Shown here: positions 1 through 62,972 of the stretch, piece by piece
Position numbering within the stretch: the stretch's first letter is position 1
How the letters are laid out: every line of letters starts with the position of its first letter
Source of the DNA: Burkholderiales bacterium
GTDB taxonomy: Bacteria; Pseudomonadota; Gammaproteobacteria; Burkholderiales; Usitatibacteraceae
Length of the DNA stretch: 64,000 nucleotides
Direction: 5' to 3'
Assembly (NCBI GenBank): GCA_033764435.1
Contig: JANRIX010000010.1
Coordinates: 163,220 to 227,219, forward strand
Translations under genes and position numbers: made by a program
The notes under the pieces: model-generated
Database searches by the model: none
What the model was told of the DNA's origin: nothing
The model's input: only the letters and a program-made list of their open reading frames with translations

Positions 1-1015
1 ATTTCTGCTCGCCGCCCAGCACGAATGAACGGATTTTCTGCGTCTCCACCCGGGCTTTCAGTTCGCGCACCGCCTCGGCATCGCCCAGCTCGCCGCTGGC
101 CTGCGCGTCAGCAAACTCGATGGCATGGGCGTTGCGCACCTCGTCATCGCTGAATTTGCTCTGAAAGGCGCGCAGGAACCATTTGCTGTCGGTTGTCGGG
201 CGAAAATCCAGGTTTACCGAGAAAGCTTCGCGTTCGCGGGTGATTCGGTAGTCGCGACGCTCGAATTCCTCCAGTTTGCCGTCATCCCATGCGCCGCCGG
301 TCTCCACGTTCTCCGACCCGAACTTGCGCTTGTCGTAACTGGCGCCCAAGGCCACACCGAACTTGCCGTCCATCAGGCGGTCCGCGAACAGGGCGGTGGC
401 CTTCGGTCCGTTCTGCCTGGTGTTGTCATCGCGGCTGCCGCCGGCTTCGGCGTTGAACACGCGCCCGGGCAGGTCAAATGCGGAAAGGGTCTTCACTTCG
501 ATCGTGCCGCCCAGCGAGTTGGCGTCCTGATCGGGGGTCAGCGTCTTGCTGACCTCCAGCGAGCGAATGAGTCCGGCGGGCAGCACGTCGAGCATCACGC
601 CGCGGCGGCTGGATTCGGGCGCGGGGACCAGCGCGCCATTAATGGTCACACTGTTGAGATCGGCGCCCAGTCCGCGCACGCTCACATAGCGGCCCTCGCC
701 CTGATCACGCTCAACCGAGAGGCCGGGAATGCGCGCCAGCGCTTCGGCAGCGTTGGTGTCAGGCAGCTGGCCGATGTCGTCGCTGGACACCGCGCTCACG
801 ATGTTGTCCGCATCTTCCTGGATCTTCAGCGCCTTGCGAATATTCGCACGCTGACCCGTGACGACGATGCGCTCGATGGGTTGCGCTGTCTTCGCCGCAG
901 GTGCGCTGTTGCCGGTCGCCGGTGGCGGGGTCGTGGCCGGCGCGGGCGGGGTTGTCTGCGCGCCGACGCCCATCGCGGTCAATGCACTCAGCGTCGACAA
1001 GACACCGACAGCCAT
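1..1015 (-). CDS. TonB-dependent outer-membrane receptor, N-terminal part (gene continues beyond window start)
   Basis: Minus-strand translation from ATG at 1015 gives a Sec-type signal (MAVGVLSTLSALTAMGVGAQ). Plug-domain motifs follow: IERIVVTGQR, LARIPGLSVERDQGEGRYVSVRGLGADLNSVTINGA, GGTIEVKT. An in-frame alternative ATG lies at 1081. Absent from the ORF track because its stop lies outside the window. Confidence 0.75.
   Translation of the reverse strand, partial: MAVGVLSTLSALTAMGVGAQTTPPAPATTPPPATGNSAPAAKTAQPIERIVVTGQRANIRKALKIQEDADNIVSAVSSDDIGQLPDTNAAEALARIPGLSVERDQGEGRYVSVRGLGADLNSVTINGALVPAPESSRRGVMLDVLPAGLIRSLEVSKTLTPDQDANSLGGTIEVKTLSAFDLPGRVFNAEAGGSRDDNTRQNGPKATALFADRLMDGKFGVALGASYDKRKFGSENVETGGAWDDGKLEEFERRDYRITREREAFSVNLDFRPTTDSKWFLRAFQSKFSDDEVRNAHAIEFADAQASGELGDAEAVRELKARVETQKIRSFVLGGEQK
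836..847. repeat. GCGAATATTCGC palindrome copy (perfect)
   Basis: 12/12 match, extended form TGCGAATATTCGCA. Inside the TonB-receptor plug domain; reads ANIR on the coding strand. Confidence 0.95.
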
Positions 1016-1353
1016 GCTGGACAAGCGCGGCCGCAATGCGGCGCGAGGACAACGGGTGGAATTCTCTTTTTGGCGGCGCATGACGGACTCCCTTGATTTC
1101 GGAAAGCCCGGACTCTGGCGGCGCGACATTTCAACTCCGTTACGTGTGCTGTCACAGAGCCTCGAAGACACCCCATGCCGCGCGTCGGGAGCCGACATTT
1201 GAGCCCATTGCACCCACGCTCCGAGTCACGGAATGATCGTGGGATACCCATCGACGACCAAGCATGAGCCGTTTGCGCCCCCCTCGCGCCGGCTGACTTC
1301 GCGCTGTCATCCATTTTTCATAATCTGCCGCATCCCTTTCGATTGCCGCCGCC

Positions 1354-2268
1354 ATGCTTGCCCTGCACCGCACACCGCTCTGTATCACGCTGCTCGCTTT
1401 CGTCCTGATCACCGCACTGTTCGCCACGCTGGGCGCGACGAAAGGCGCGGCGGAATGGAAGTTCCTCGACATCGTCGGTGAAGGTGGCATCGCCCTGCTG
1501 GCGGGCATCTGCCTGGTGATGATGTGGGCCAGCCGTCCCGCCGGGCCGGTCACCTCGCTGCTCACGATCGGCCTTGCAGGGATCATGCTGGGTGCGTGGA
1601 CCGACTGCCTTGACGAGTTCTTCAAAGTGGGTGCCAACCAGAGCTGGGACAGCTGGCTGGAGGCGGTGCTCATGCTGGGCGGTGCCATCACGTTGACTGT
1701 CGGCCTCTACTTCTACCGCTTCGAACAGTTGAGTCTGAATGCGCATCTGGAGAAGCGCGAGCGCCTGTTCCGCGATCACCGCGCCTTCGACCGTGTCACC
1801 CAGGTGGCCAACGCCGACTACCTGCGTCGTCAACTGCGTGCGGAGACGGCGCCAGGGCGCGAGCCGGCCGCATTGGTGCTGCTTGACCTCGACCGCTTCC
1901 ACCTCGTGAATCGGGCGCACGGTCCGGCCGAAGGCGACCGCGTGCTGCAGGGCGTGACTCAATTGTTGCTGCTCAACGTGCGCACCGGCGACCTCGTGTG
2001 CCGCTATGCCGGCGACCGCTTCGCCGTGCTGCTCCCGGCGACGACGCCCCAGCGGGCCATGCGCCTTGCCGAGCATTTGCGGCGCGTCATCGAGCAGTGG
2101 CGCCACCATCCCCGAGACGGGACACCACCCCTCGCGCTGTGCGCGCGCCAGGCCAGCTGCCGCGTGGAGGGCGATGTCGATGCACTCCTCTCGAACCTGG
2201 ACCGAATGCTGGACGAATCAAGCAACACCCGCGTGCCCCATCGGGCCGTGCACTCCGCTCACGCCTGA
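1354..2268 (+). CDS. membrane-anchored GGDEF-domain protein with degenerate active-site motif (RYAGD)
   Basis: 304-aa ORF with N-terminal TM helices. GGDEF-like block LVLLDLDRFHLVNRAHGPAEGDRVL...CRYAGDRFAVLLP has the GG[DE]EF motif replaced by AGDRF. Confidence 0.7.
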   Translation: MLALHRTPLCITLLAFVLITALFATLGATKGAAEWKFLDIVGEGGIALLAGICLVMMWASRPAGPVTSLLTIGLAGIMLGAWTDCLDEFFKVGANQSWDSWLEAVLMLGGAITLTVGLYFYRFEQLSLNAHLEKRERLFRDHRAFDRVTQVANADYLRRQLRAETAPGREPAALVLLDLDRFHLVNRAHGPAEGDRVLQGVTQLLLLNVRTGDLVCRYAGDRFAVLLPATTPQRAMRLAEHLRRVIEQWRHHPRDGTPPLALCARQASCRVEGDVDALLSNLDRMLDESSNTRVPHRAVHSAHA

Positions 2269-2276
2269 TCTTCGTC

Positions 2277-3302
2277 GTGGAACCGCGCACCTATCGCCTG
2301 GCCGGCGAACGCTTCATCGCCGGCCTGCACCAGCCGGCGCTGGTGTACGAGTTCGGCTTGCGCTCGGAGGCCGACCCGGGACATCTGCTGCGGGATTGCG
2401 AGTTTGACCCTGCGGCGCTGCGCGATGCCGAATCCAGAGTGTCGCCGGCGGAATTGCTGAAGATGATCGGCAACACGGCACGCGCAGTCGCTCAGCCGGA
2501 CACGAGTTTTCTGCTCGGACAGCAATGGCTGCCCGGCCACTACGGGCCGGCGAGTCATGCCCTGGTTCACGCCGGCTCGCTGGGCGATGCACTGGCCATT
2601 CTCTGCCGCCACCACGCGACCTTGACGCCACTCTTGCGACCCCGCCTGCTGAACGAAGGCGATCACGCTGTCCTTTACTGGACCGACAGTTTCGGCTCGC
2701 CCGCCCTGCGTCCGCTGCTGGTCGAACTGCACATGAGCGCGGTCACGGCCATGTGCCGCTGGCTCGCGGGTGAACGGCTGCCCTGGCGCTTCTGCTTCAA
2801 TCGCGCCCGGCCGCGACATGCCGAACAGCATGCCGTGCATCTGGGCAGTGCGCTGCGCTTCGACTGCCAGCTTGATGCGCAAATCATTGACGCCGACTGG
2901 TTGCGCCGGCCGTGGCCCCGCGCGCAGATCGGTGCCATGCAGGCTTCACTGCATGGCGCCGAGGCTGATGCCGAGGCACGCGACAGCCTGCCCTCATGCC
3001 TCTATGACCACCTGTTGGCGAATATTCGCACGCCGCCCACGCTTGAAAGCACGGCAACCGACTTTGGCATCAGTCCGGCAACGTTGAAGCGCCATCTCAT
3101 GCAGCACGGCACGCACTTCCAGGCGGAGCTGGACCTGGTGCGCGCCCATGTCTCGATCTACCTCATGCAGATCAGGGGGCTCGACAACGAGGCTGTGGCG
3201 GATCATCTCGGCTTTCATGACGCCCGCAACTTCCGCCGCTCGTTCATCCGCTGGACCGGGCTCACGCCTCGCGGGATGCGCAACACGCTCTTGCCGGCCT
3301 AG
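2277..3302 (+). CDS. AraC-family transcriptional regulator
   Basis: C-terminal AraC HTH (ISPATLKRHLMQHGTHFQAELDLVRAHVSIYLMQ...ARNFRRSFIRWTGLTPRGMR). GTG at 2277 is the first start after the upstream stop at 2268; true start uncertain (next ATG is 2464). Confidence 0.55.
   Translation: MEPRTYRLAGERFIAGLHQPALVYEFGLRSEADPGHLLRDCEFDPAALRDAESRVSPAELLKMIGNTARAVAQPDTSFLLGQQWLPGHYGPASHALVHAGSLGDALAILCRHHATLTPLLRPRLLNEGDHAVLYWTDSFGSPALRPLLVELHMSAVTAMCRWLAGERLPWRFCFNRARPRHAEQHAVHLGSALRFDCQLDAQIIDADWLRRPWPRAQIGAMQASLHGAEADAEARDSLPSCLYDHLLANIRTPPTLESTATDFGISPATLKRHLMQHGTHFQAELDLVRAHVSIYLMQIRGLDNEAVADHLGFHDARNFRRSFIRWTGLTPRGMRNTLLPA
3018..3029. repeat. GCGAATATTCGC palindrome copy (perfect)
   Basis: 12/12; inside the AraC gene, frame ANIR (checked against ORF frame). 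Confidence 0.95.
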
Positions 3303-3907: not shown

Positions 3908-3919
3908 GCGAATATTCGC
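3908..3919. repeat. GCGAATATTCGC palindrome copy (perfect)
   Basis: 12/12. Intergenic, ~45 nt upstream of the DUF1428 start, preceded by a half copy (gcaaatattgcgaatattcgca). Confidence 0.95.
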
Positions 3920-4614: not shown

Positions 4615-5913
4615 TTAGAGCTGCGGCCGTGCCGGCGCAGCGGGCGGCGCGGGCGGTACAGGCGGCAAAGGAAGCGCAGGTGGTGATGGCAGCGGTGGTG
4701 GGGATGGTGGCGTTGGCGGCAGCGCATCGGCCACCACCACGGCGACCGCAGCAGGCAGTCTGGGCGGCGGCGGTGCTGCAGGCGGTGCAGGCGCGGTGGT
4801 TGCACCCGGGAGCGGTGGCGGTGCCGGCGGCGCCGGTACGACGAGCGCGACATTGCCATCGGCCCATTGCGAATATTCGCCTTCCACACTGCGCGCGGCG
4901 AACTGGTTCGAACCTTCGCGCGGACGCTCCATGAGCACCATGCGCTTGCCCGGATAGTCGAACGTGACCACGTAGCGTTTCAACAGCGCGATGCCGATCG
5001 CGCCCTGGCGATTGCCCAGGCCGACCGCCTCTTTCTCTTCATACGACACCGCCACCTCGCGCGCCTGCAACACCGCCTCGCCGTGGCCCCGACTTTGACC
5101 AAACGCCACATTCACCGGCGCGCCCTTCAGCGTCTTCGACTTGCCGGACACATAGCACGCGGTCTGCGGCTCGCCCTGTTCCGGCATGCGGATTTCCGGC
5201 TTGCTGCCGGCGATGAGCGCCAGCGCGCTGTTCTTGCCAGTGTCCACATGAACATGCACTGGCACTGGCTTGTTGGCGAGATTCACGCTGAGATCTGTAT
5301 AGATGTGCCCGCTGCGAATCGAAAGCGGCAACACGGCGACGCCCGCACGCTCAGCCGGCGCGGTCCAGCGCTTCGGATCGAAGAGGCGCACCCGCCCGCG
5401 CTGATGGTCGATCTCCACCACGAACCGCTTGAAGAGATCTGCGCCGATCACGCCCTGGAAGTTGATCTTCTCGAACCGCTCCGGGCAGGGCATGGACTGT
5501 CCCGGGATGACGACAGCCGTGAGATCGGAAAACTTCACCCGGCCAAAATCGAATTCGAATCCCGGCGTGATGACGCCGGTCGGCGTTGCCGGGTTGTCGG
5601 CCGGCCCCAGCTTCCGCGCCTTCGAGGTATCGAGCTTCAGCGCCTTTGTCGCTGGCCCATCAATGATGACCGACACCGGCGCGCCCGTATCGAGGATGAA
5701 GTCGTAACGCCCGCCGCGGTTGACCGCGCCGGTCAGGATCACCAGCCCGCCCGGGCCCTCGCGAAACGCGAGCTCGATCGGCTCGTCGGCGCGGGCCGGA
5801 TCGAACTGCGCCTGCACCGTCGGCTCGGTGAAGCCCATCAGTGCGTATTGCAGGTTGCAGCCGGCCAGCACCTGCAGGAGCAGGGCGGCGAGCAGCAGCC
5901 TCGGAGCCCGCAT
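4615..5913 (-). CDS. retropepsin-like aspartic protease lipoprotein with Pro/Ala-rich C-terminal tail
   Basis: Lipobox LLQVLAGC. Two DTG motifs (FILDTGAPVSVI, VHVDTGKNSALAL). C-terminal PAPPAPPPLPG...PPVPPAPPAAPARP tail. Start at M80 (5913) or M76 (5925) of ORF 4615..6150. Confidence 0.7.
   Translation of the reverse strand: MRAPRLLLAALLLQVLAGCNLQYALMGFTEPTVQAQFDPARADEPIELAFREGPGGLVILTGAVNRGGRYDFILDTGAPVSVIIDGPATKALKLDTSKARKLGPADNPATPTGVITPGFEFDFGRVKFSDLTAVVIPGQSMPCPERFEKINFQGVIGADLFKRFVVEIDHQRGRVRLFDPKRWTAPAERAGVAVLPLSIRSGHIYTDLSVNLANKPVPVHVHVDTGKNSALALIAGSKPEIRMPEQGEPQTACYVSGKSKTLKGAPVNVAFGQSRGHGEAVLQAREVAVSYEEKEAVGLGNRQGAIGIALLKRYVVTFDYPGKRMVLMERPREGSNQFAARSVEGEYSQWADGNVALVVPAPPAPPPLPGATTAPAPPAAPPPPRLPAAVAVVVADALPPTPPSPPPLPSPPALPLPPVPPAPPAAPARPQL
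4869..4880. repeat. GCGAATATTCGC palindrome copy (perfect)
   Basis: 12/12; in the retropepsin-like gene (minus), reads EYS (frame checked). Confidence 0.95.
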
Positions 5914-5954: not shown

Positions 5955-5966
5955 GCGAATATTCGC
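5955..5966. repeat. GCGAATATTCGC palindrome copy (perfect)
   Basis: 12/12; in the 5' leader ~30-40 nt upstream of the retropepsin-like gene start. Confidence 0.95.
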
Positions 5967-6311: not shown

Positions 6312-8459
6312 ATGCCGTCACGCCAAGTCAACCTCACCCATGCCGGACTTCGCACGCTGGACGCCCGGCCAGACCGCCTCGATCTGCGCGACCGCCCGTA
6401 TCTGCCCCCGGTGCGATCGCTGCCGCATCGCTACCCCAGCGACGCCAATCTCCGGAAACTCCTTCCCGATTACCTGAAGAAAAAGATGGTGCTCGATCAG
6501 GGCCAGGAAGGCGCATGCACCGGCTTTGGTCTCGCGGCCGCCATCAACTTCATGCTCTGGTACAGGCATGTCGAAACCAAAGGTCGCTACCCCTACAAGC
6601 GGGTCAGCCCGTACATGCTCTACGACCTCGCGCGCTTCTACGACGAATGGCCGGGCGAGGACTACGACGGCTCCAGCTGCCGCGGCGCCATGAAGGGCTG
6701 GCACAAACATGGCGTCTGCGAATATTCGCACTGGACCAGCTCGGTGAAGCCCGGCGGAACCTCGGGAAAATCATCGAAGCCGTACAAACCCAATACCGGT
6801 TGGGCATTCGATGCGGCCAACTGTCCGGTCGGCATCTACTACCGGGTCAATCGCGAGTCTGTCACCGACATCCAGGCCGCCATCAACGAAATGGGCGCGG
6901 TCTACGTCGCGGCCACCGTCCACGCCGGCTGGGACAGCGTCAAGCTGGCGAATGCCCGCCTGAAAAGCCACGACGACATCCCGGTCATTCCGTGGACGAA
7001 GGACTATCAAGCCACTGGCGGTCACGCGTTTGCGCTGATGGGCTTCAACGAATCCGGCTTCGTCGTGCAGAACTCCTGGGGCGACCGATGGGGCAACCAG
7101 GGCTTCGCCGTGATCACCTACGCCGACTGGGTTGCCAACGGCTGCGACGCGTGGGTGTGCTCGCTGGGCGTGCCACAGGTCAAGCCCGGGTCGGCTGCCA
7201 ACGCGGCAACGGTGTCGCGCGTGCGCCAATTGAATTCGTCGGCTGTCACGCCGGCTGCGGCGCTCGCCTCGACAGCGCCTTCTGCCGCCGAGCCGTGGGA
7301 CGTGGACACCGCCTACGCGCACACGCTGGTCGCCGGCAACAACGGCGTCGTCCGCCACAACACCCCTGATATCGGCAGCGCAGCCGCCCAGGTCGAGAAG
7401 ATCCTCGTCGATGCGCCGCTGGCCTGGGCCAGGGAAACAAAGCTTGCCAAGTCCGGCAAGCCACTCAAGCTGATGCTCTACGCGCATGGCGGCCTCAATT
7501 CGGAAGACAGCTCGGTGAAGCGCATTCGCAAGCTGGGACCGTACTTCCTCGCCAACGGCGTGTACCCCGTGTTCTACACCTGGCGCACCGGGTTCATGGA
7601 AGTTGTGAAAAGCGCTCTCGGCGACGCATTTGCCCCGAGTGAAGCGCCCGCGTCGGGCAAGCTGGCCGACGCCAAGGACGCGCTGATTGAGGCGATCTGC
7701 CACGGCACGCGCGCCATCTGGAACGAAATGACGGAGAACGCCGCGCGCGGCGCCGACGCCGGACACGCGATCGACCTCGCGGCCGAGGCGATCGTCATGC
7801 TCGCCAGCAAAGTCGATCTTGAAGTGCATCTCGTTGGCCACTCCGCCGGATCGTTCGTCCACGGCCACCTCATGGACGCGCTCGCCAAGCGCAAGCTGCC
7901 GGTGCACTCGCTGACCCTCTACGCCCCCGCCTGCTCACTCGACTTTGCCAATGAACACTTCGTCCCGGCGGTGCAGAAGAAGCGGCTGGCCAAGGACGCG
8001 TTCTGGCTGCACGTCCTTTCCGACAAGCGCGAGCGTGCGGATTTCGTGGGGCCCGGCACGACCCGGGTCTACGGCAAATCCCTGCTCTATCTCGTCAGCC
8101 GAGGGTTCGAGAGCACGCGCAAGACGCCACTCGCGGGGCTTGAACACTGCCTCGATACGCGCGCCGACAACCCCGACGATGATCTGTGGACAAAGGCGCT
8201 CTACGAGAAGGATGTGCTGGCGTGGCGGAAGTTCGTTGCCACGCTGCCCGCGCAGGCGGATGGCAGGGCGGCGGTGGAGGTCACGGATGCCGATGTCGTC
8301 ACTGAGAAACTGAACGCCGACGGGACCATGTCGACCACCAAGGCCTCGCACGGCTCGTTCGACAACGATGTCGATGTTGTCACGCGCACGATCAATCGCG
8401 TGCTGGGGGTGGCCCCCGGCGCGAAGTTGGCGGTGCCGGTCGTGGATTTGAAGTATTGA
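6312..8459 (+). CDS. fusion protein: N-terminal papain-like (C1) cysteine peptidase domain + C-terminal alpha/beta-hydrolase domain
   Basis: RBS aaggagg before ATG 6312. C1 motifs: QGQEGACTGFGLAAAINF (Gln/Cys), GGHAFALMGF (His), VVQNSWGDRWGNQGF (Asn-Ser-Trp). Hydrolase motifs: LMLYAHGGLN (oxyanion HGG), LVGHSAGSFV (GxSxG nucleophile), C-terminal SHGSFDND. Confidence 0.8.
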   Translation: MPSRQVNLTHAGLRTLDARPDRLDLRDRPYLPPVRSLPHRYPSDANLRKLLPDYLKKKMVLDQGQEGACTGFGLAAAINFMLWYRHVETKGRYPYKRVSPYMLYDLARFYDEWPGEDYDGSSCRGAMKGWHKHGVCEYSHWTSSVKPGGTSGKSSKPYKPNTGWAFDAANCPVGIYYRVNRESVTDIQAAINEMGAVYVAATVHAGWDSVKLANARLKSHDDIPVIPWTKDYQATGGHAFALMGFNESGFVVQNSWGDRWGNQGFAVITYADWVANGCDAWVCSLGVPQVKPGSAANAATVSRVRQLNSSAVTPAAALASTAPSAAEPWDVDTAYAHTLVAGNNGVVRHNTPDIGSAAAQVEKILVDAPLAWARETKLAKSGKPLKLMLYAHGGLNSEDSSVKRIRKLGPYFLANGVYPVFYTWRTGFMEVVKSALGDAFAPSEAPASGKLADAKDALIEAICHGTRAIWNEMTENAARGADAGHAIDLAAEAIVMLASKVDLEVHLVGHSAGSFVHGHLMDALAKRKLPVHSLTLYAPACSLDFANEHFVPAVQKKRLAKDAFWLHVLSDKRERADFVGPGTTRVYGKSLLYLVSRGFESTRKTPLAGLEHCLDTRADNPDDDLWTKALYEKDVLAWRKFVATLPAQADGRAAVEVTDADVVTEKLNADGTMSTTKASHGSFDNDVDVVTRTINRVLGVAPGAKLAVPVVDLKY
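6718..6729. repeat. GCGAATATTCGC palindrome copy (perfect)
   Basis: 12/12, extended TGCGAATATTCGCA; in the C1 peptidase domain, reads CEYSH (frame checked). Confidence 0.95.
8139..8459. repeat. direct repeat copy A (3' end of the peptidase/hydrolase gene), paralogous to 14676-14993
   Basis: Encodes LEHCLDTRADNPDDDLW...AWRKFVATLPAQADGRAAVEVTDADVV...SHGSFDNDVDVVTRTINRVLGVAPGAKLAVPVVDLKY. About 70% aa identity to the downstream remnant. Confidence 0.75.
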
Positions 8460-9971: not shown

Positions 9972-10907
9972 ATGCCACCCACCCGCATCGCCTTCACCTC
10001 CTGCGCCCGCATCGAGGACTTCCCTTCCCAGCCGCAGTGGAAGGAGATCCAGGATGCCGAACCGCACTACCTCCTCCTGCTGGGCGATCAGATCTACATG
10101 GACTACGGATTCAGCAGCGAGCCGAACGGTTCGCCTGCCGACTATCCGCTGGACAAGTTTCGGGACACGATGGCGGCAAAGTACGCGCGCCAGTGGTCGG
10201 AGACACATTTCAAGGACCTGCTTGAATACATGCGCGCCGAGGAGTCTCCAGACAAACCGCGAATATTCGGCACCTGGGACGACCATGACTTCGGCTGGAA
10301 CAATGCCTTCGGCCTGCAGCCGAAAATGACGCCCGACAAATACCAGGCCACGCTCGACCTCTTCCATCAATGGATGAATTGCTCGACCAACCGGCCGCAT
10401 GTGTACTGTCACGCGGACATCGGCGACTTGGCCCGGCTCATCATCCTCGATCAGCGCAGTCACGCTGAGCCCGCAAGCCCGACCAAGCCGACGGCGTCGT
10501 TGCTGGGCGCGGACCAATGGGCGTTTCTGCGGGACAAGCTCAACCACGACAAGCAATACACCCTACTCTGCGGCGGGCTCAGCCTCACCCGCGGCAAGGA
10601 CAACTGGGAGGAGTACCAAGACGAGTACCAGCAACTGCGCGATCTCATCGAGGATCGCGAAGGCGTGATCTATCTGGGCGGCGACATCCACAGCAACAAA
10701 TTCATGAAGCCCGGCGATGACCGGCCGTGCTACGAGATCATCTCATCCGGGCTGGCCGTCAACCTGCTCGCGCTGACGTCGCTGGGCATTGACGATCGCC
10801 ATAACTGGAGCTATCTCGACCTCTCCGAAGAGGGTGTAAAGGTGGTGCAATCCACGTCGGGAAAGCTCAAGCGGCACGCAATCCGATTTGACAATTGGTG
10901 GGGCTGA
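9972..10907 (+). CDS. PhoD-like / calcineurin-like metallophosphatase
   Basis: Metallophosphoesterase signature blocks ARIAFTSC, LLLGDQIYMDYG, WDDHDFGWNN, LGGDIHSNKF. Confidence 0.75.
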   Translation: MPPTRIAFTSCARIEDFPSQPQWKEIQDAEPHYLLLLGDQIYMDYGFSSEPNGSPADYPLDKFRDTMAAKYARQWSETHFKDLLEYMRAEESPDKPRIFGTWDDHDFGWNNAFGLQPKMTPDKYQATLDLFHQWMNCSTNRPHVYCHADIGDLARLIILDQRSHAEPASPTKPTASLLGADQWAFLRDKLNHDKQYTLLCGGLSLTRGKDNWEEYQDEYQQLRDLIEDREGVIYLGGDIHSNKFMKPGDDRPCYEIISSGLAVNLLALTSLGIDDRHNWSYLDLSEEGVKVVQSTSGKLKRHAIRFDNWWG

Positions 10908-14675: not shown

Positions 14676-14993
14676 CTCGCCCACTGCCTCGACCCGAAAG
14701 CGGACAACCACGACGACGACCTCTGGACACCACGCGAATATTCGCAAGTGGTCGCGTGGCGCGATTTCGTCCGCGCGCTGCCCGCGCAGGCCGACGGCCG
14801 CGACGCCGCGGAAGTCGTCACCATCGACGTCGTCCCCGCCAAGCTCGGCGCGGACGGCAGCGTGGTCACCATCGAGTCCACCCACGGCTCGTTCGACAAC
14901 GACCTCGAAACCATTTCGCGGACGATCAACCGGGTGTTAGGCAAGGTGCCGTCGGCGCCGCTGGAGGTGGGGGTGACGGATTTGAAGTATTGA
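14676..14993. repeat. direct repeat copy B (paralog of 8139-8459)
   Basis: See copy A. Contains a perfect GCGAATATTCGC copy that the upstream copy lacks. Confidence 0.75.
14734..14745. repeat. GCGAATATTCGC palindrome copy (perfect)
   Basis: 12/12; within the gene remnant, reads EYS. Confidence 0.95.
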
Positions 14994-47085: not shown

Positions 47086-48194
47086 CCGTCAAAGGGGGCG
47101 AGCGCGCCATTGCCGCATCGCATGACGAGATTGCCCGCGCGCGGCGCGGCGATCCGGCTGTGCCCGAGTTGAGTGTCGAGCAGATTCAGGAGCAGCTCAG
47201 GCTCGCCGTCGATCGCGTGATGACCGAAGGCAGCGTGTACGACCGCGAGCTCGCCGCACTCGCCATCAAGCAGGCGGCGGGTGATCTGGTCGAAGCCATC
47301 TTTCTCTTGCGCGCCTATCGCGCCACGCTGCCCCGTCTGGGCTACACAGAAGCCATCGACACCACGCGCATGCAGATGACGCGGCGCATCTCGGCCACGT
47401 TCAAAGATCTGCCGGGCGGGCAGGTGCTGGGGCCGACGTATGACTACACCCAGCGCCTGCTCGACTTTTCGCTGGCGGCGGGCACGCCTGTGGCTGCGAG
47501 CGATGACGCTGCGCATGGCGAATATTCGCAACCGGACGCTGCCGATCATGCCTACGCTTCCGTCGTCGAACTGCTCGGCAACGAAGGCCTGATCGAGCGC
47601 CACGAGCCTGACGCCGGTGACCCAGAACCCGCCGACCTCACCCGCGAGCCGCTGTCGTTTCCGGCCGACCGCGCGTTGCGCCTGCAGAACCTGGCACGCG
47701 GCGACGAAGGCTATCTGCTGGCCATGGGTTACTCCACCCAGCGCGGCTATGCGCACACCCATCCGTTTGCGGGCGAAATCCGCTTTGGCACGGTGGAGGT
47801 GGAAATCGTGCCCGAGGAACTGGGCTTCCCCATCGTCGTGGGCGAGATCGACGTGACCGAGTGCCAGATGGTCAACCAGTTCGCCGGCTCGAAGACTGCG
47901 CCGCCTCAGTTCACCCGCGGCTACGGCCTCACCTTTGGTCACGGCGAGCGCAAGGCCATGGCCATGGCGCTGGTGGATCGCGCGCTGCGCGCCGACGAGC
48001 TGGGCGAGATCGCCAGTCACACCAGCCGGGCGCCGGCGCAGATGCAGGAGTTTGTGCTCTCGCACTCCGACAACCTGGAAGCGTCGGGCTTCGTTCAACA
48101 CTTGAAGCTGCCGCATTACGTGGATTTCCAATCCGAACTGGAGCTGGTGCGCAAGATGCGCAAGGCCCACGCCCGCACGGAGGCCGCTGAATGA
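47076..48194 (+). CDS. phnI: C-P lyase subunit PhnI
   Basis: MYVAVKGGERAIAASHDEIARARRGDP...; ATG 47076 is in frame with ORF 46257..48194 and overlaps the phnH end. Confidence 0.85.
   Translation: MYVAVKGGERAIAASHDEIARARRGDPAVPELSVEQIQEQLRLAVDRVMTEGSVYDRELAALAIKQAAGDLVEAIFLLRAYRATLPRLGYTEAIDTTRMQMTRRISATFKDLPGGQVLGPTYDYTQRLLDFSLAAGTPVAASDDAAHGEYSQPDAADHAYASVVELLGNEGLIERHEPDAGDPEPADLTREPLSFPADRALRLQNLARGDEGYLLAMGYSTQRGYAHTHPFAGEIRFGTVEVEIVPEELGFPIVVGEIDVTECQMVNQFAGSKTAPPQFTRGYGLTFGHGERKAMAMALVDRALRADELGEIASHTSRAPAQMQEFVLSHSDNLEASGFVQHLKLPHYVDFQSELELVRKMRKAHARTEAAE
47518..47529. repeat. GCGAATATTCGC palindrome copy (perfect)
   Basis: 12/12; in phnI, reads EYS (frame checked). Confidence 0.95.
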
Positions 48195-50600: not shown

Positions 50601-51736
50601 TGGAGCTGATTCTGAGAAATGCCCGCGTGGTGCTGGGTGACGAAGTCGTCACGGGCTCGGTTGCGGTGAAGGACGGCCTGATCGCCGACATCGCCAGCAA
50701 CGGGTCCGCGCTGTCCACCGGCCAGGATCTGGACGGCGACTACCTCATGCCCGGCTTCATCGAGCTGCACACCGACAATTTCGAGCGCCACCTCATGCCG
50801 CGGCCCAAGGTGCGCTGGCCGGAGATGCCCGCGCTGCTCGCCCATGACGCCGAGTGCGCAGCGGCCGGCATCACCACTGTCTACGACGCACTGGGCGTGG
50901 GCGACGCCGATCCCGAAGCCATGCGCGGCCAGGACATGGCACCGATCATCACCGCACTACGCCAGGCGCGTGCCGATGGACTCTTGCGGGCGGATCACCT
51001 GCTGCACATCCGCTGCGAGCTGCCTGCCCCCAACGCGCTCACCCTGTTCGAGCCCTTCCAGCAGGACCCGCTGGTGCGGCTGATTTCGCTCATGGATCAC
51101 ACGCCGGGTCAGCGCCAGTGGACCAACATCGAACAGGCCCGCGTTTACTACACCGGCAAGAAGGGCTGGTCGGACGAGAAGTTCGCGCGCTCGGTGGCGC
51201 AGTCGATGGAAATGCAGGAGAAGTACGCGCTGCCGCATCGCCGCTTCTTCACCGAATATTCGCAGTCCAAAAACATTCCGCTGGCGAGTCACGACGACAC
51301 GCTGCCCGAGCACGTGCGCGAAGCGCATGCGGAAGGCGTGCGCATCAGCGAATTCCCGACCACGGTCGACGCCGCCCGCGAAGCGAAGACGCTGGGCATG
51401 AGTACCGTCATGGGCGCACCCAATGTCATTCGCGGCGGCTCGCATTCGGGCAACGTCGCCGCGGTCGAGCTGGCACGGCTGGGATTGCTGGACACGCTGT
51501 CTTCCGACTATGTGCCGGCCAGCCTGATGGGTGCCGCACTGCAGCTCACCCGCGACGTCGGCTTCACCCTGCCGCAGGCAGTCGCGACCATTTCGCGCAA
51601 CCCGGCCAGGGCATTGGCGCTCGGCGACCGGGGGGAGATCGTGACCGGCAAGCGCGCCGACCTCGTTCAGGTGCGTATCGCCAACGGCCAACCCGTGGTG
51701 CGCGCCGTCTGGCGCGAAGGCGTACGGGTCATCTGA
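50600..51736 (+). CDS. phnM: PhnM (alpha-D-ribose 1-methylphosphonate 5-triphosphate diphosphatase), amidohydrolase fold
   Basis: MPGFIELHTDNFERHLMPRP, SHDDTLPEHV, GAPNVIRGGSHSGN; contains one 11/12 palindrome copy at 51252. Confidence 0.85.
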   Translation: MELILRNARVVLGDEVVTGSVAVKDGLIADIASNGSALSTGQDLDGDYLMPGFIELHTDNFERHLMPRPKVRWPEMPALLAHDAECAAAGITTVYDALGVGDADPEAMRGQDMAPIITALRQARADGLLRADHLLHIRCELPAPNALTLFEPFQQDPLVRLISLMDHTPGQRQWTNIEQARVYYTGKKGWSDEKFARSVAQSMEMQEKYALPHRRFFTEYSQSKNIPLASHDDTLPEHVREAHAEGVRISEFPTTVDAAREAKTLGMSTVMGAPNVIRGGSHSGNVAAVELARLGLLDTLSSDYVPASLMGAALQLTRDVGFTLPQAVATISRNPARALALGDRGEIVTGKRADLVQVRIANGQPVVRAVWREGVRVI

Positions 51737-51807: not shown

Positions 51808-52689
51808 ATGCAACCCGCCATCCGCGTCACCGAACTGACCAAGTCCTTTGGCAGCCATGCCGCGCAGCGCAGCGTGGCGCTGGACAAGGTCACGCTGGAA
51901 ATCATGCCCGGCGAGATGGTGGCCCTCATCGGCGCCTCGGGCTCCGGCAAATCCACACTGCTGCGCCATCTGGCCGGGCTGATCGTGGCGGATCGCGGCA
52001 CGTCTGGCGAAATCGTGGTCAACGGCCGCGTGGTGCAGAAGAACGGTGTGCTGGCCGCGAATATTCGCGAAGTGCGCGAAGGCATCGGCTTCGTGTTCCA
52101 GCAGTTCAATCTGGTGGGCCGGCTGCCCGTGATCACCAATGTCATGGCCGGCATGCTCACCCGCGTGCCGCTCTGGCGCAGCCTCACCCGCTGGTTCCAC
52201 ACCCGCGAATATTCGCAAGGGCTGGAAGCGCTGGCGCGCGTGGGCATGGCTGAACGTGCGGCCCAGCGCGCGTCGACACTCTCCGGCGGCCAGCAGCAGC
52301 GCGCCGCCATCGCCCGCACGCTGGTGCAGCAGGCCAAGGTGGTGCTGGCCGATGAGCCCATCGCATCGCTTGATCCGGAGTCCTCGCGCCGGGTCATGGA
52401 TATTCTCGCCACCATCAACCGCGAGGACCACTGCACGGTCGTGGTCTCGCTGCACCAGGTCAACGTCGCCATCAAGTATTGCCCGCGCACGATCGCGCTC
52501 CGCCGCGGCCAGGTGGTGTACGACGGCCCGTCCGAACGTTTGACGCCGGCCTTGCTGCGCGATCTCTACGGCGCTGAGGCCGACGAGATTCTCGATCTGC
52601 CCGACCACATCTCGCTGCTGCAGGACCGTCGCGAGAGCGCCGCGAACGTTGCCGCCCTGCCTTCCATCCAGGCTGCCCAGGCAGGCTGA
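51808..52689 (+). CDS. phnC: phosphonate ABC transporter ATP-binding protein PhnC
   Basis: Walker [10 protein letters not shown], signature [12 protein letters not shown], Walker [15 protein letters not shown] 51808 is in frame with ORF 51796 (which begins at TTG). Confidence 0.85.
52057..52068. repeat. GCGAATATTCGC palindrome copy (perfect)
   Basis: 12/12; in phnC, reads ANIR (frame checked). Confidence 0.95.
52205..52216. repeat. GCGAATATTCGC palindrome copy (perfect)
   Basis: 12/12; in phnC, reads EYS (frame checked); 148 bp from the previous copy. Confidence 0.95.
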
Positions 52690-55597: not shown

Positions 55598-56533
55598 ATG
55601 ACTGTTCCCGCCCTCGCTGTCTGGGCCGGCCCGAAGACGACGGAGTACCGCTCGCTTTTTCGCGCGGCCGCACCCGACATAGCTGTCGCGGCGGCGGACG
55701 ACATCGCGGATACATCGTCTGTCGAATGGCTGGCCGGCTGGCGACTGCCGCCCGGATACTTCGCCCGCTTTCCCCGACTCAAGGTGTTCTTCGGGCTCGG
55801 CGCCGGCGTGGACGCGGTGCTGACGCGCGACGACCTAGCGCCCCATGTGCAGGTGGTGAAGCTGGCCGATGCCGGCATGGCGCCACAAATGGCCGAGTTC
55901 GCACTCATGGGTGTGCTCCACTGGCAGCGGCGCATGGGCGAATATTCGCAACAGCAGGCGGCATGCGAATGGAAGCCCCTGCCGCCGCGACTGCGTGCCA
56001 ATGTGCGCGTGACCGTGCTGGGACTGGGTGCCATTGGCGGTGAAGTGGCGCGCACGCTGGCCGACTTCGGCTATCGCGTGAGCGGGTGGAGCCGTTCGCA
56101 GAAATCCATTGCCGGTGTGCGCTGCCTGCACGGGCGCGACGCGTTGCAGGCGCTGCTCGCGGACACCGATGTGCTGGTCAACATGCTGCCCTCGACCCGG
56201 GAGACGCGCGGCCTCATCAATCATGCCGTGCTGTCCGCGCTTCCCGCCGGCGCGTATGTCGTCAACGGTTCACGCGGCGATCAGCTGGATGCGGACGCAT
56301 TGCTCCAGCTGCTGGAGAGCGATCATCTCTCCGGCGCGCTGCTGGATGTGTTCGCCACTGAGCCATTGCCTGCGGACAGCCCGCTCTGGCACCACGCGAA
56401 TATTCGCATCACGCCGCATGTGGCCGCGGTCACCCTTCCGGGCGAAGCGGTCGAGCAGATCGTGGCGAATATTCGCAGGCTGCAAAGGCACGAACCGATG
56501 ACCGGCTTGGTGGAACGCGGCAGGGGCTACTAA
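55598..56533 (+). CDS. D-isomer-specific 2-hydroxyacid dehydrogenase family (GhrA-like glyoxylate/hydroxypyruvate reductase)
   Basis: NAD-binding VTVLGLGAIGGEVARTLADFGYRVSGWSRS; catalytic region NGSRGDQLD...DVFATEPLP...HHANIRITPHVA. Contains three perfect palindrome copies. Confidence 0.85.
   Translation: MTVPALAVWAGPKTTEYRSLFRAAAPDIAVAAADDIADTSSVEWLAGWRLPPGYFARFPRLKVFFGLGAGVDAVLTRDDLAPHVQVVKLADAGMAPQMAEFALMGVLHWQRRMGEYSQQQAACEWKPLPPRLRANVRVTVLGLGAIGGEVARTLADFGYRVSGWSRSQKSIAGVRCLHGRDALQALLADTDVLVNMLPSTRETRGLINHAVLSALPAGAYVVNGSRGDQLDADALLQLLESDHLSGALLDVFATEPLPADSPLWHHANIRITPHVAAVTLPGEAVEQIVANIRRLQRHEPMTGLVERGRGY
55938..55949. repeat. GCGAATATTCGC palindrome copy (perfect)
   Basis: 12/12; in the 2-HADH gene, reads EYS (frame checked). 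Confidence 0.95.
56396..56407. repeat. GCGAATATTCGC palindrome copy (perfect)
   Basis: 12/12; in the 2-HADH gene, reads ANIR (frame checked). Confidence 0.95.
56465..56476. repeat. GCGAATATTCGC palindrome copy (perfect)
   Basis: 12/12; in the 2-HADH gene, reads ANIR; 69 bp from the previous copy. Confidence 0.95.
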
Positions 56534-58108: not shown

Positions 58109-58750
58109 TCACTCGACGCGGGTCACTTCCTGCAGCATTTCATTGCGGCGCAGGAACCACGGCACCATCGGCGCGTTGTAGCGCGCCATTTCCGGACGGC
58201 CGACCGCGCGGAGGCCGGACTGCTTCACCCACGTTGCGAGCTCCGCTTCATATTGCGGCACATCGCCCAGACCCCACGCACCGCTGAAATCGCGCACGGC
58301 CACGAGGCGCGCAGGCACTTCGCGCAGGCGCACCGCCGGATCGCGCGGCGCCGGTGCATTGGCCAGCGTGAAGCGCGCAGGGAGCACGAAGGCAACGACA
58401 TGGCGGCCGGTCGCGCTGGCCTCGCGCTGGGTCACCGGCACGGTCATCTCGATTTTTTCCCCGACCGCTGACTGGGTCACGGGCACGGTCATTTCGATCT
58501 TCGTTGCACCCGTGTTCTCGCCCGAGATGTAGCGGAAGAGCGGACGGAATGCGCGGTTGCCGGCTTCGGTGAAGTCGGCTTCGACTTCGATCTCGGCGAC
58601 GACATAGGGCGAATATTCGCGAAGCTCGTAGCGGCCGTCCTTCTTCACCACCTTGAACACGGGTTCTTCAATGGCCATGGCGGCGAGGCTGGTGAACGTT
58701 GCCAGCAGGAACGCGGCAAGGCTTGCGATGAGGGAAATGGCGGCGCGCAT
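58109..58750 (-). CDS. SOUL/HBP heme-binding family protein with an in-frame 45-bp tandem duplication
   Basis: Signal MRAAISLIASLAAFLLATFTSLAAMA; SOUL-like blocks; KIEMTVPVTQ occurs twice 15 aa apart. Confidence 0.8.
   Translation of the reverse strand: MRAAISLIASLAAFLLATFTSLAAMAIEEPVFKVVKKDGRYELREYSPYVVAEIEVEADFTEAGNRAFRPLFRYISGENTGATKIEMTVPVTQSAVGEKIEMTVPVTQREASATGRHVVAFVLPARFTLANAPAPRDPAVRLREVPARLVAVRDFSGAWGLGDVPQYEAELATWVKQSGLRAVGRPEMARYNAPMVPWFLRRNEMLQEVTRVE
58427..58501. repeat. 45-bp tandem duplication inside the SOUL gene
   Basis: ctgggtcaccggcacggtcatctcgatttt... and ctgggtcacgggcacggtcatttcgatctt... at 45-bp spacing, encoding the duplicated KIEMTVPVTQ. Confidence 0.7.
58609..58620. 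repeat. GCGAATATTCGC palindrome copy (perfect)
   Basis: 12/12; in the SOUL gene (minus), reads EYS (frame checked). Confidence 0.95.
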
Positions 58751-60566: not shown

Positions 60567-60578
60567 GCGAATATTCGC
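60567..60578. repeat. GCGAATATTCGC palindrome copy (perfect)
   Basis: 12/12, extended TGCGAATATTCGCA; ends 2 nt before the GTG start of the KefG-like gene. Confidence 0.95.
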
Positions 60579-60580
60579 AG

Positions 60581-61123
60581 GTGATCCTGCTCCTCCACGC
60601 CCACCCCTATCCCTCACGCTCGCGGGCGTGCAAAGCGCTGCTCCACGCGGCGCGCGAGGTGGCGAATATTCGCATCCACAGCCTGTATGAGCGGTATCCG
60701 GACTTCGACATTGATGTGACCGGGGAACAAGCCCTGCTGCGCGAAGCGGCGCGCATCGTGGCGTTGCACCCCATCTACTGGTACGCCCCGCCCGGCCTCT
60801 TCAAGCATTGGCTGGACAAGGTGCTGGTGCGCGGCTTCGCCTACGGACCCGGTGGCGACGCGCTGGTCGGCAAGTCCTTCCTGTGGGCTCCCACGACCGG
60901 TGGCGATGACCACGCCTATTCGGCGGCCGGCATGCATGAACATCCGTTCACCGCCTTCATGGGACCGATGCAGCAGACCGCGCGCTATTGCCGCATGCAC
61001 TGGGAAGAGCCCTTCGTGCTGCATGGCGCGCATGTGATGGACGACGCCACGCTGGCCGCGCAGGCGGCAGCGTTCGCGGCACGCCTCGCCCATCCGCCCG
61101 GACAGGCCAGCCATGCTGTTTGA
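60581..61123 (+). CDS. kefG: NAD(P)H-dependent oxidoreductase, KefG/KefF-type ancillary subunit of the K+ efflux system
   Basis: [22 protein letters not shown]... flavodoxin-like NAD(P)H-quinone-oxidoreductase fold; overlaps kefC start by 11 nt; GTG start. Confidence 0.7.
60662..60673. repeat. GCGAATATTCGC palindrome copy (perfect)
   Basis: 12/12; in the KefG-like gene, reads ANIR (frame checked). Confidence 0.95.
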
Positions 61124-62972
61124 CGCCTTCATCTATCTCGCCGCCGCAGTGCTGTGTGTCCCGCTGGCCAAGCGCTTCGGCCTGGGCGCCGTGCTGGGCT
61201 ATCTGATCGCCGGCGCCCTCATTGGTCCGTGGGGGCTCAAGTTCGTGAGCGACGTGGAGAGCATCCTGCACTTCTCCGAGTTTGGCGTGGTGCTGATGCT
61301 GTTTGTGATCGGCCTTGAACTGGAGCCGCAACGGCTCACCTCGATGAAGAAGGAAGTGTTCGGCGGCGGCAGCCTGCAGATGGCGCTCTCGGGTGGCGCG
61401 CTCATGCTGGCCGGCCTCGCGCTGGGCCTGGACTGGCGCGCGGCATTCGCCGCCGGTTTCGCGCTGGCACTCTCCTCGACCGCCATCGCCATGGCCACCA
61501 TGGATGAACGCAACTTCACCCAGACACCAACCGGCCGCTCTGCATTCGCCGTGCTGCTCTTCCAGGACATCGCCGCCATTCCGCTGCTGGCGGTGGTGCC
61601 GCTCCTCGCTGTGGCGGGCGCCGGTGCTGATGCCGCGAGCGCAACGCCGGTGTGGCAACGCGCGGCGATCGCCTTTGCCGCGATCGCGGGCGTCATCGTC
61701 ATCGGGCGCTACCTCACCCGCCCGGCGCTCGCCATCATCGCGGGCACCCATCTGCGCGAGGTGTTCACGGCCTTCGCGTTGCTGCTGGTGATCGGCATTG
61801 CGCTCCTCATGTCGGCGGCCGGTCTCTCCATGGCGCTGGGTGCCTTCCTCGCCGGTGTACTGCTCGCCGGATCGGAATACCGCCACGCGCTGGAAACCGA
61901 CATCGAGCCGTTCAAGGGCCTGCTGCTCGGGCTCTTCTTCATCTCGGTCGGCATGAGCATCGACTTTGGTCTTCTCAAGTCGCAGCCGCTCATGGTGGCG
62001 GGGCTGGTGGTGGGCCTTCTCGTCCTGAAGCTCGTCACGCTGTGGCTGGTCGCGCGCATTCTCGGCGTCACCACGCGCCAGCGCTGGCTCTTCGCTGTAC
62101 TGCTCTCGCAAGGTGGCGAGTTCGCGTTTGTTGTGCTGGCAGCAGCCAAGACCAGCGCGGTCATCGCGCCGGAATGGAATGCGCTCCTCACCATTGCCGT
62201 GGCACTTTCGATGGCCACGACACCACTGCTGCTCATCGCTCACGACCGCTGGGTGTGCCGCGAGGCGGCCGCGCAGCGCGAGGCGGATGCCATCGATCAG
62301 TCCGGCGACGTCATCATCGCGGGCTTCGGCCGCTTCGGCCAGATCATCGGCCGCCTTCTCATCGCAAATGGCATCCGCCCGGTGGTGCTGGACCAGGACC
62401 CCGACCAGATCGAGATGCTGCGCCGCTTCGGCTACCAGGTGTTCTATGGCGATGCGACGCGGCTGGATCTGCTCGAAGCCGCCGGGGCTGCGCGAGCCAG
62501 ACTGCTGGTCAACGCCATCGACGATGTCGACGCCAATCTGGCGCTCACCGATCTCGTGCGCGAGTCCTTTCCGAATATTCGCATCCTGTCCCGCGCACGC
62601 AACGTCTCGCACTACGTCGCGTTGCGGACACGCAAAGTCGAGGTCGTCGAACGCGAGACCTTTGAGGCCGCGCTCCGTCTGGGTCGCCATGCACTGGAGG
62701 CGCTGGGCCTTGATCGCTATCGCGCCCGCGAGCTGGCCGACCAGTTCCGCCGCCACAACATCGCGACCATGGATGCGCTCATTCCCCACTTCAACGACGA
62801 AGCCAAGCTGCTCAGCGCATCCAAGGCGGGGCGACAGGAGCTCGAAGAGCAGTTCGCGCAAGACCGCCAGGCCTTTGACGCGGCACATGGGAGTGAAGAT
62901 TGGCACGCGAATCGCACTGACAGCGACGCCCGTGCCCACACAGTGCGCGATTCGACGGCGGGACAGGCGTAG
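61113..62972 (+). CDS. kefC: glutathione-regulated potassium-efflux antiporter KefB/KefC (CPA2 + TrkA-N domain)
   Basis: 12-13 TM Na+/H+ exchanger core; C-terminal Rossmann [19 protein letters not shown] (TrkA-N); one 11/12 palindrome copy at 62572. Confidence 0.9.

Follow-up and report, generated by a model that had tools for sequence, protein, structure and literature searches.

A 64-kb stretch of DNA from an uncultured Burkholderiales bacterium (contig JANRIX010000010.1; the whole 64,000 nucleotides are referred to as the window) carries a previously undescribed hyper-iterated palindrome of 12-16 letters, repeated about once per 2 kb of chromosome. Its 12-letter form GCGAATATTCGC, referred to as the word, is present in the window in 31 perfect and 8 one-mismatch copies. 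Comparison with related genomes revealed that a sequence-specific force at the DNA level creates and keeps this word at the cost of codon bias and protein sequence. As for its role, we tentatively rank first the possibility, which falls short of being probable, that the word may be a self-DNA tag in uptake or recombination, recognized by a symmetric reader.

Abundance and anatomy of the palindrome

By dinucleotide shuffling of the window, 0.01 perfect copies are expected, or 0.22 if up to one mismatch is allowed. With Markov models of order 0-5, for which all motif copies in the window were masked before training, the expectation for the 12-mer is 0.002-0.006 copies, corresponding to an observed/expected ratio of ~5,000-13,000. 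A frequency at the Markov level is thus ruled out. The GC content, stated as ~66% in the first-pass annotation of this DNA, was measured at 62.6%. All 31 perfect copies were found at the positions listed in that annotation, and its eight one-mismatch copies exist as well, two of them shifted by 1 nt (27206 instead of 27207, and 62571 instead of 62572). Of the 40 AATATT hexamers in the window, 37 fall within the 10-mer CGAATATTCG. The nested counts are 37 for this 10-mer core, 31 for the 12-mer, and exactly 10 for the 14-mer TGCGAATATTCGCA, where at least 10 extended copies had been announced. The palindrome is strongly over-represented in both coding (21 copies) and intergenic (10 copies) DNA. 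The spacing of copies is Poisson-like, with a coefficient of variation (CV) of 1.01 over a window that is too short for a periodicity test.

Full-text literature searches with the 12-mer and the 10-mer gave no description of either as a genomic repeat, in agreement with the earlier remark that no such element was known. The literature on iterated palindromes and uptake sequences turned up only cyanobacterial, Neisseriaceae, and Pasteurellaceae cases.

The 12-mer forms the almost invariable core of a compact palindrome of 14-16 bp, tTGCGAATATTCGCAa, and the flanks of the window copies are unique. In a symmetrised profile of 170 copies pooled from ~300 kb of DNA of the same clade, information outside the core was observed only at positions +/-1 (T/A, 66%) and +/-2 (T/A, 45%), and none further out. 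The same clade DNA contains 27 one-mismatch copies versus 171 perfect ones (16%); 19 of the 27 differ at the outermost base only and 8 in the inner 10-mer, while the 11 two-mismatch copies are close to the estimated chance level. The full 14-mer is carried by 7 of the 10 intergenic copies in the window, versus 3 of the 21 coding ones. A mobile element or miniature inverted-repeat transposable element was rejected, given the unique flanks, the lack of information past +/-2 nt, and the lack of indels relative to outgroups.

Several of these features fit a rival of the self-DNA tag, namely that the word is bound by an abundant, sequence-specific chromosomal protein acting as a dimer (nucleoid-associated or serving chromosome organisation), with purifying selection acting on each site independently of uptake. 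The perfect dyad with half-sites of 7-8 bp, the decay of information at the edges, as in a protein-binding motif, and the restriction of most single mismatches to the outermost base all agree with such a protein; further evidence on it is given below together with the candidate roles.

Creation and retention of copies within one clade

A genome scan that covered one genome per GTDB species and required two copies 40-70 nt apart returned 56 loci. Further copies around the pair, at 0.5-0.9 per kb, were found in only two betaproteobacterial metagenome-assembled genomes (MAGs), JAEUMY01 ('new MAG-159') and JANNSU01 ('SOY_31_metabat_153', GCA_031394355.1). Syntenic loci were then gathered via homologues of the 2-hydroxyacid dehydrogenase and KefC genes of the window. 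The closest of them, L215 (KefC 96% identical to the window), has 6 copies in 12.5 kb; the two JAEUMY01 loci L010 and L033, 83-86% identical to the window in DNA, have 7 copies per 8 kb locus (14 in 16 kb). Ordered by amino-acid identity of the dehydrogenase, L057 (87%) has 6 copies in 15 kb, L058 (78%) 7 in 18 kb, L063 (78%) 9 in 21 kb, and the JANNSU01 locus L059 (76%) 15 in 21 kb; L213 (KefC 79%) has 2-3 copies in 8 kb. The density is 0.25-0.7 copies per kb across the window and eight further independent assemblies. The next relative, L061 (KefC 77%, the same gene neighbourhood, GC 64%), contains neither the word nor AATATT in 16 kb, and a second relative, L062, has no copy. Thus, the occurrence of the word is limited to a single, sharply bounded clade of uncultured Burkholderiales. 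An artefact or a synthetic origin is ruled out by the presence of the word at orthologous positions in independent NCBI, JGI, and Logan assemblies. By extrapolation from ~0.5 copies per kb, a genome with an assumed size of 4 Mb would hold of the order of 2,000 copies.

The origin of individual copies was traced in a codon alignment of the 2-hydroxyacid dehydrogenase gene, 55598-56533 (+), from six clade members and two outgroups. No indels are present at its three word sites. The site at 56465..56476, read as ANIR, was reached by synonymous changes (GCG AAC ATT CGG to GCG AAT ATT CGC), and outgroup L061 encodes the same ANIR via GCGAACATTCGG; the AAC to AAT changes run against a GC content at third codon positions (GC3) of about 0.8. 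The other two sites were made by amino-acid replacement. At 56396..56407, beside a conserved TPH, PNVT of L061 (CCGAACGTCACC) became ANIR, and at 55938..55949, read as EYS, NTYAK became GEYSQ (the outgroups encode NTYAK and LDYAL). For five window sites, the outgroup sequences are 2-7 positions away from the word. Copies thus originate in situ through point substitutions and not through insertion.

Once made, the copies persist. The perfect word is kept in 30 of 35 orthologous comparisons within the clade, versus 6.0 expected from random 12-mers in the same alignments, and four of the five losses are single mismatches; this rules out the possibility that copies are absent from relatives. Conserved copies were found in genomes that are 76-87% identical in protein. 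Several one-mismatch copies of the window are perfect in relatives and are therefore decayed copies. Conservation of the flanks (1-60 nt) is slightly below that of control positions (0.795 vs 0.822), so the word does not ride on conserved protein segments. Creation by substitution together with retention beyond the surroundings implies that the force acts on the DNA word itself. The earlier interpretation of a long-resident, selected word rather than a recent insertion is borne out by the unique flanks, the substitutions without indels, and this retention.

The cost to proteins is visible in the reading frames. The 31 perfect copies comprise 10 intergenic and 21 coding ones, the latter read as ANIR (10), EYS (9), or RIFA (2); the first-pass annotation had counted 10, 10, and 2, which is correct for ANIR and RIFA and one too many for EYS. 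Since the window is roughly 85% coding, the word is ~2-3 fold enriched in intergenic DNA, where the copies have no common placement relative to genes; about two thirds of all copies (68%) are intragenic. The frame bias proposed earlier is confirmed: the frame needing the rare codons CGA and ATA is used by only 2 of the 21 coding copies, and the proteins of the window contain 10 ANIR tetrapeptides, every one encoded by the exact word, versus a single RINA. EYS and its reverse SYE occur 13 times and twice, respectively. AAT and ATT are minority codons in the window (33% and 23%). The word thus shapes the proteome, altering amino-acid sequences to fit.

A second rival of the self-DNA tag derives the word from methylation and repair, as suggested by Elhai for highly iterated palindrome 1 (HIP1) of cyanobacteria: an orphan methylase would act on AATATT or CGAATATTCG, repair bias would regenerate the word, and the sites would be functionless. 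HIP1 contains target sites of orphan methylases and has been suggested to originate from repair bias (PMC4390886). With 37 of 40 AATATT hexamers inside the word, a methylase of the core would mark essentially the word alone, and the inner 10-mer is near all-or-none, with 8 inner one-mismatch copies versus 171 perfect ones. However, recognition spans 14-16 bp, longer than known methyltransferase sites, and the 10^4-fold excess is far larger than known effects of repair bias. Sites built from sequences 5-7 mismatches off would need a graded preference, not near-cognate repair, and no methylase motif was seen in ~300 kb of clade DNA (a weak negative). We consider this explanation unlikely.

Copies along the window, REP elements, and neighbouring genes

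Gene frames along the window were checked with Pfam hits, GC3, and tRNA calls. Besides the two sites in the dehydrogenase gene, copies read as ANIR are located at 836..847 in a TonB-dependent receptor gene, 2-1213 (-); at 3018..3029 in an AraC-family regulator gene, 1998-3302 (+); at 28356..28367 in the open reading frame (ORF) 27699-28829 (+), where outgroup L061 has GCGAACGTGCGC; at 35082..35093 in rtcB, 34161-35480 (-); at 41763..41774 in ORF 41052-42383 (-), conserved in L058; at 44916..44927 in a DUF1045/PhnN-like gene, 43728-45053 (-); at 52057..52068 in the phosphonate ABC ATPase gene phnC, 51796-52689 (+), conserved in L010, L057, and L059; and at 60662..60673 in a Flavodoxin_2 (KefF/G-like) gene, 60581-61123 (+), conserved in L058 and L059, with CCGGGCGTCCGC in outgroup L061. 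The EYS frame is used, besides the dehydrogenase site, by two copies (4869..4880 and 5955..5966) in an aspartyl-protease-like ORF, 4615-6150 (-), and by those at 6718..6729 in ORF 6312-8459 (+), 32474..32485 in an SPFH/Band 7 gene, 31434-32741 (-), 46817..46828 in phnH, 46456-47085 (+) (perfect in L059, one mismatch in L057), 47518..47529 in phnI (conserved in L057 and L059), 52205..52216 in phnC (conserved in L010, L057, and L059), and 58609..58620 in a SOUL haem-binding gene, 58109-58798 (-) (perfect in L057, decayed in L058 and L059). The two RIFA copies lie at 24758..24769 in a TolB-repeat/amidohydrolase gene, 22500-26027 (+), conserved in JAEUMY01, and at 44452..44463 in the DUF1045/PhnN-like gene.

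Two intergenic copies are full 16-mers, at 3908..3919 (TTGCGAATATTCGCAA), upstream of a DUF1428 gene, and at 31082..31093, 9 nt after a DUF1415 gene. Full 14-mers were found at 15013..15024, at the edge of the Lamassu island described below, with the next copy (15079..15090, also intergenic) 66 nt away; at 28832..28843, filling the 14-nt spacer between a stop at 28829 and a start at 28844; and at 60567..60578, between a TetR gene and the kefF/G-like gene, conserved in L058 and L059. Further copies are located at 14734..14745, 2 nt before a small ORF (14748-14993), and at 36257..36268 in a tRNA-array spacer, 5 nt from tRNA-His 36177-36252 (-). One-mismatch copies inside genes are GCGAATATTCGG at 10259..10270 in a PhoD-like gene, 9972-10907 (+); GCGAATATTCGT at 27206..27217 in a CHASE3 histidine kinase gene, 26117-27634 (-); ACGAATATTCGC at 29909..29920 in an FAD-dependent oxidoreductase gene, 29374-30498 (+), read as EYS; GCGAGTATTCGC at 39675..39686 in an amidohydrolase gene, 38287-39849 (-), read as EYS and perfect in L058 and L063; and CCGAATATTCGC both at 51252..51263 in phnM, 50600-51736 (+), read as EYS and perfect in JAEUMY01 L010, and at 62571..62582 in kefC, 61113-62972 (+). 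The statement that copies reside inside the phn operon, rtcB, and kefG holds for perfect copies in phnH, phnI, phnC, the PhnN/DUF1045 gene, rtcB, and the kefF/G-like flavodoxin gene, and for the one-mismatch copy in phnM.

The remaining copies lie beside repetitive extragenic palindromic (REP) sequences or REP doublets forming hairpins (REPINs). The REPIN at 22279..22364 (34-nt arms, 94% complementary) is bracketed by a one-mismatch copy on its left (GCAAATATTCGC, 22250..22261, perfect in JAEUMY01 L033) and a full 14-mer on its right (22385..22396, intergenic, conserved in JAEUMY01), and the whole arrangement is kept in JAEUMY01. Another full 14-mer (33255..33266, intergenic) is 16 nt from the REPIN at 33283..33357 (30-nt arms, 93% complementary). 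A single dRS3-like REP (CCGTCATTCCCGCGAAGGCGGGAAC...) at 20833..20865 is 32 nt from the one-mismatch copy CCGAATATTCGC at 20789..20800, which aligns to a perfect copy in JAEUMY01 L033 within a poorly aligned stretch (flank identity 0.34). The REP families differ between genomes, being dRS3-like in the window (CCCGCGCAGGCGGGAAC) and unrelated to it in JANNSU01 (GTAGCCCGGATGCAGC); the architecture of 12-mer, REP(IN), 12-mer is the same. Of 11 clear REP loci in clade DNA, about 10 lie within 45 nt of a copy of the word, at distances of 7-45 nt. No target-site duplication is visible at the copies associated with REPs and REPINs. The association may be due to REPINs being targeted to the word, to a protein that binds both, or simply to a common tolerance of long spacers. 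REP/REPIN elements with the word also occur at L005 3780-3990, and L009 7100-8000 holds a ~295-bp tandem mosaic with seven word copies in 760 bp.

JANNSU01 also encodes a RAYT-like (REP-associated tyrosine transposase) Y1 transposase, at L059 14791-15531 (-), within an insertion that is motif-rich, specific to JANNSU01, and located between the genes for the dehydrogenase and a cNMP-binding protein. One word copy lies inside this gene and one 21 nt upstream; two ~60-bp direct repeats downstream of it each begin with the 12-mer, and the gene is flanked by inverted repeats of another sequence, GGGGACAGACCACCATT / AATAGGGGACAGACCACCATT. No RAYT-like gene was found in the window.

These observations raise the possibility that the word is a minimal REP, or the preferred site or border at which REPINs insert, and that a Y1 transposase spread it. 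The proximity of the word to nearly all clear REP loci, the common architecture around two unrelated REP families, and the copies in and upstream of the RAYT-like gene would fit such a link. Against it, 21 of the 31 window copies lie in genes, in frame, and arose by substitution without indels; the shared sequence is limited to 12-16 bp, with no visible target-site duplication; and the window has no RAYT-like gene. The transposase is disfavoured as the spreading agent, its own flanking inverted repeats (GGGGACAGACCACCATT) being different from the word. We regard this link as very unlikely to account for the word.

The same 12-bp core was also found outside the clade, as a paired operator. In Saprospiraceae and Chloroflexota, two copies of TTAGCGAATATTCGCTAA, 60-100 bp apart, bracket a -35/-10-like promoter, upstream of a fadE-like acyl-CoA dehydrogenase gene in Saprospiraceae, and between the malate synthase A gene (aceB) and a divergent RamB-like XRE regulator gene in Chloroflexota. 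Paired-operator loci comprise the non-betaproteobacterial ones among L001-L056 and L184-L212 (e.g. L024 6266-6348 and L001 5360-5437). The operator looks like that of a fatty-acid/acetate metabolism regulon; we found no description of it. With two copies only, arranged as a paired operator, in Saprospiraceae, Chloroflexota, and one Cellvibrionaceae-labelled MAG, the occurrence of the same phenomenon in other phyla was rejected. The operators demonstrate that proteins can read this sequence, and nothing more. A pair scan of metagenomes returned almost exclusively operator-type pairs, with at most one contig resembling a clade member; one unrelated metagenome contig (L209, Ga0115007_10279532, GC 42%) carries at 300-640 a satellite of ~28 tandem units, (CGCGAATATTCG)n. 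A 14-mer scan of viral contigs (IMG/VR) gave single hits only, near the estimated chance level (locus L104 held a second 12-mer), and three viral pair scans with gaps of 1-90 nt gave no match.

Could the word itself be the operator of a global transcription factor with a very large regulon? The same core is a genuine paired operator beside RamB-like regulators and fadE/aceB genes in other phyla, and the copies at 28832, 60567, and 14734 abut start codons. On the other hand, 68% of the copies are intragenic, there is no fixed promoter distance, the density is 0.5 per kb, the flank preference (T/A) is unlike that of the operator (TA/TA), and the amino-acid cost would remain unexplained. Such a regulon seems to us scarcely credible.

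A Lamassu system (LmuA/LmuC/LmuB; E-value 4e-105 for LmuB) is encoded at 15591-19091 (+) on an island with a GC content of 51%, and the island has no copy of the word. Perfect copies are also missing from the stretches 6.7-14.7 kb and 15.1-22.4 kb (about 15 kb together; a post hoc observation in one window). Unlike the Lamassu island, the JANNSU01-specific island of L059 is motif-rich. Upstream of the Lamassu genes, ORF 10895-13306 partially matches the anti-phage protein ProA and ORF 13311-14660 carries DUF7379. The small ORF 14748-14993, flanked by word copies at 14734 and 15013, begins with one member of a 69-nt direct repeat (14748-14816); the other, 74% identical, lies at 8214-8282 in the 3' part of ORF 6312-8459. 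The repeat possibly reflects duplication of part of a gene at the edge of the variable region.

Directly upstream of rtcB is an array of about 9-10 tRNA genes, 35451-36703 (-), comprising Leu, Gln, Lys, Arg, His, Glu, and Cys genes, a 151-nt Rfam tRNA hit, and one weak hit. Two further tRNA-like hits at 32992-33130 (-), one with an aberrant anticodon call, lie beside an HNH endonuclease gene, 33360-33917 (-), that has PtuB-like matches. The tRNA array, rtcB, and the HNH gene together look like a tRNA-repair or counter-defence module.

Candidate roles and comparison with known systems

The candidate roles listed in the first-pass annotation could not be narrowed decisively. Annotation of ~50 window genes with Pfam, NCBIfam, and PADLOC identified no methylase, pilin, competence protein, or obvious reader, and a crude search of ~300 kb of clade DNA for signature motifs of methylases, prepilins, ComEA, and DprA gave no credible match, which is a weak negative.

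For the chromosomal protein introduced above, the sites are strongly kept while their flanks drift, and the same core is read as a paired operator in Chloroflexota and Saprospiraceae. The position of intergenic copies beside REP/REPIN elements also agrees with it, REP elements of Escherichia coli and its bacterial interspersed mosaic elements being binding sites of nucleoid proteins. A role in nucleoid structure was proposed for HIP1 by Xu et al. (PMC5861425). However, two thirds of the sites are intragenic and cost amino-acid changes, no regularity of spacing is seen over 64 kb (CV 1.01), and neither the window annotation nor the scan of clade DNA yielded a candidate protein. In addition, ~0.5 sites per kb is far above the density of known organising sites, as parS, matS, Noc, and SlmA sites number tens per genome. 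Overall, a chromosomal protein of this kind appears rather unlikely to be the explanation.

The self-DNA tag is placed first since the properties of the word match those of uptake sequences, and since symmetric and methylated tags have precedents, described below. Its reader would be either a dimeric DNA-binding protein at a two-fold symmetric site or a reader of methylation in the AATATT core. Since this core is almost exclusive to the word in the DNA studied, its methylation would mark the word; the fuller 14-mer in intergenic copies fits a protein-type recognition surface, longer than known methyltransferase sites. The reader would act in a process handling incoming or recombining conspecific DNA, most likely natural-transformation uptake and/or recombination. 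Uptake or recombination would favour fragments with better matches, whereby matches would spread and lost copies would be restored, a molecular drive possibly reinforced by selection, and recently imported foreign DNA, e.g. the Lamassu island, would lack the tag. A more specific version, in which a non-Neisseriaceae betaproteobacterial clade independently evolved self-DNA tagging with a 14-16 bp palindrome, a dedicated symmetric reader (an uptake/recombination receptor or a methylation-dependent one), and accumulation that drives itself forcefully enough to alter protein sequences, we consider somewhat doubtful.

Several points weigh against the self-DNA tag. The hosts are uncultured bacteria, and neither the window nor ~300 kb of clade DNA revealed a component of uptake or recombination, a receptor, or a methyltransferase. 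Asymmetry is a feature of the known uptake sequences, and we know of no perfect palindrome established as an uptake signal. The closeness of intergenic copies to REP/REPIN elements is not predicted by an uptake model, and the spacing is uninformative for it (CV 1.01). Finally, the conservation, the frame bias, the clade specificity, and the absence from the island are equally predicted by sites of an abundant protein or by HIP1-type models without uptake.

To our knowledge, only two classes of hyper-iterated short words that invade coding sequence are well studied: the DNA uptake sequences (DUS) and uptake signal sequences (USS), and HIP1. The function of DUS and USS is uptake specificity, whereas that of HIP1 is still debated after ~30 years. 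The present word constitutes a third independent case, distinguished by its length as a perfect palindrome, its AT core within GC-rich DNA, and its ~10^4-fold excess. Given the sharp phylogenetic boundary, with a syntenic sister that lacks the word, comparison of gene content should expose a reader, a methylase, or a receptor, and finding the reader could reveal whether uptake sequences and palindromes of the HIP type are one phenomenon. If it is indeed a self-DNA tag, the word would be the first palindromic uptake or recombination signal and a tractable parallel to HIP1. It is also a diagnostic marker for binning the clade and for flagging foreign DNA in it, and could, provided that it functions as HIP1 or DUS do, aid the design of transforming DNA for these bacteria.

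The likeness to HIP1 and to uptake sequences suggested in the first-pass annotation is seen in the over-representation, the conservation at orthologous positions, the clade specificity, and the peptide and frame bias. HIP1 (GCGATCGC) is likewise a short perfect palindrome, hyper-abundant in and between genes and sometimes palindromically extended, with sites conserved at orthologous positions and a clade-restricted occurrence, relatives being without the word. The function of HIP1, long debated, is now linked to transformation and methylation (PMC4390886, PMC5861425), including DmtC methylation in transformation (preprints 10.1101/2024.09.10.611283 and 10.64898/2026.06.24.733823), and molecular drive from biased uptake or recombination, accepted for DUS and USS, is now proposed for HIP1. 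The present word differs from it in several respects: (i) sequence and phylum are unrelated, (ii) it spans 12-16 bp versus 8-10 bp, (iii) it has an AT-rich core in a GC-rich genome and an observed/expected ratio of ~10^4 versus 15-300, and (iv) HIP1 has cognate methyltransferases, whereas none is known for this word.

With the DUS of Neisseriaceae and the USS of Pasteurellaceae, the word shares a core of 9-12 bp with weaker flanks, about 0.5-2.5 copies per kb, family-level clade specificity, enrichment of encoded peptides, a frame bias that follows codon preference, and intergenic enrichment. USS carry helically phased AT tracts, whereas the 170 pooled sites of this word do not. Uptake sequences are known for peptide enrichment, codon-linked frame bias, and absence from genes without homologues in relatives (PMC2817400), and for clade-specific 'dialects' (PMC3630211). 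One-mismatch copies amount to 16% of perfect ones here (27 vs 171) and to 21% for kingDUS (PMC3630211). In contrast to the present perfect palindrome of uncultured hosts, DUS and USS lack symmetry, and the bacteria that use them are demonstrably competent and have a known or proposed pilin receptor (ComP, ComN); the dyad-paired DUS of Simonsiella provides a precedent for a symmetric tag (PMC3630211). In Campylobacter jejuni, methylated RAATTY, which is palindromic and AT-rich, marks self DNA for uptake (PMC10046745). The AATATT core, being almost exclusive to the word, could be marked likewise. RAATTY is a short, common word that, unlike the present one, is not known to be hyper-accumulated, and discrimination there is by methylation alone.

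Other repeated or symmetric sequences are more distant. REPs and REPINs are palindromic and repeated too, and intergenic copies of the word lie directly beside REPINs. However, REPs are known as imperfect palindromes of about 20-40 nt that are found only outside genes and spread as units, whereas the word is 12-16 bp long, mostly intragenic, and made by substitution. The paired operator TTAGCGAATATTCGCTAA has the identical 12-bp core and a perfect dyad, but two copies per locus, no genome-wide iteration, and other flanking bases and phyla. Thus, the word is akin to HIP1 and to DUS/USS and a member of neither, differing from both in sequence and host and from DUS/USS also in symmetry.

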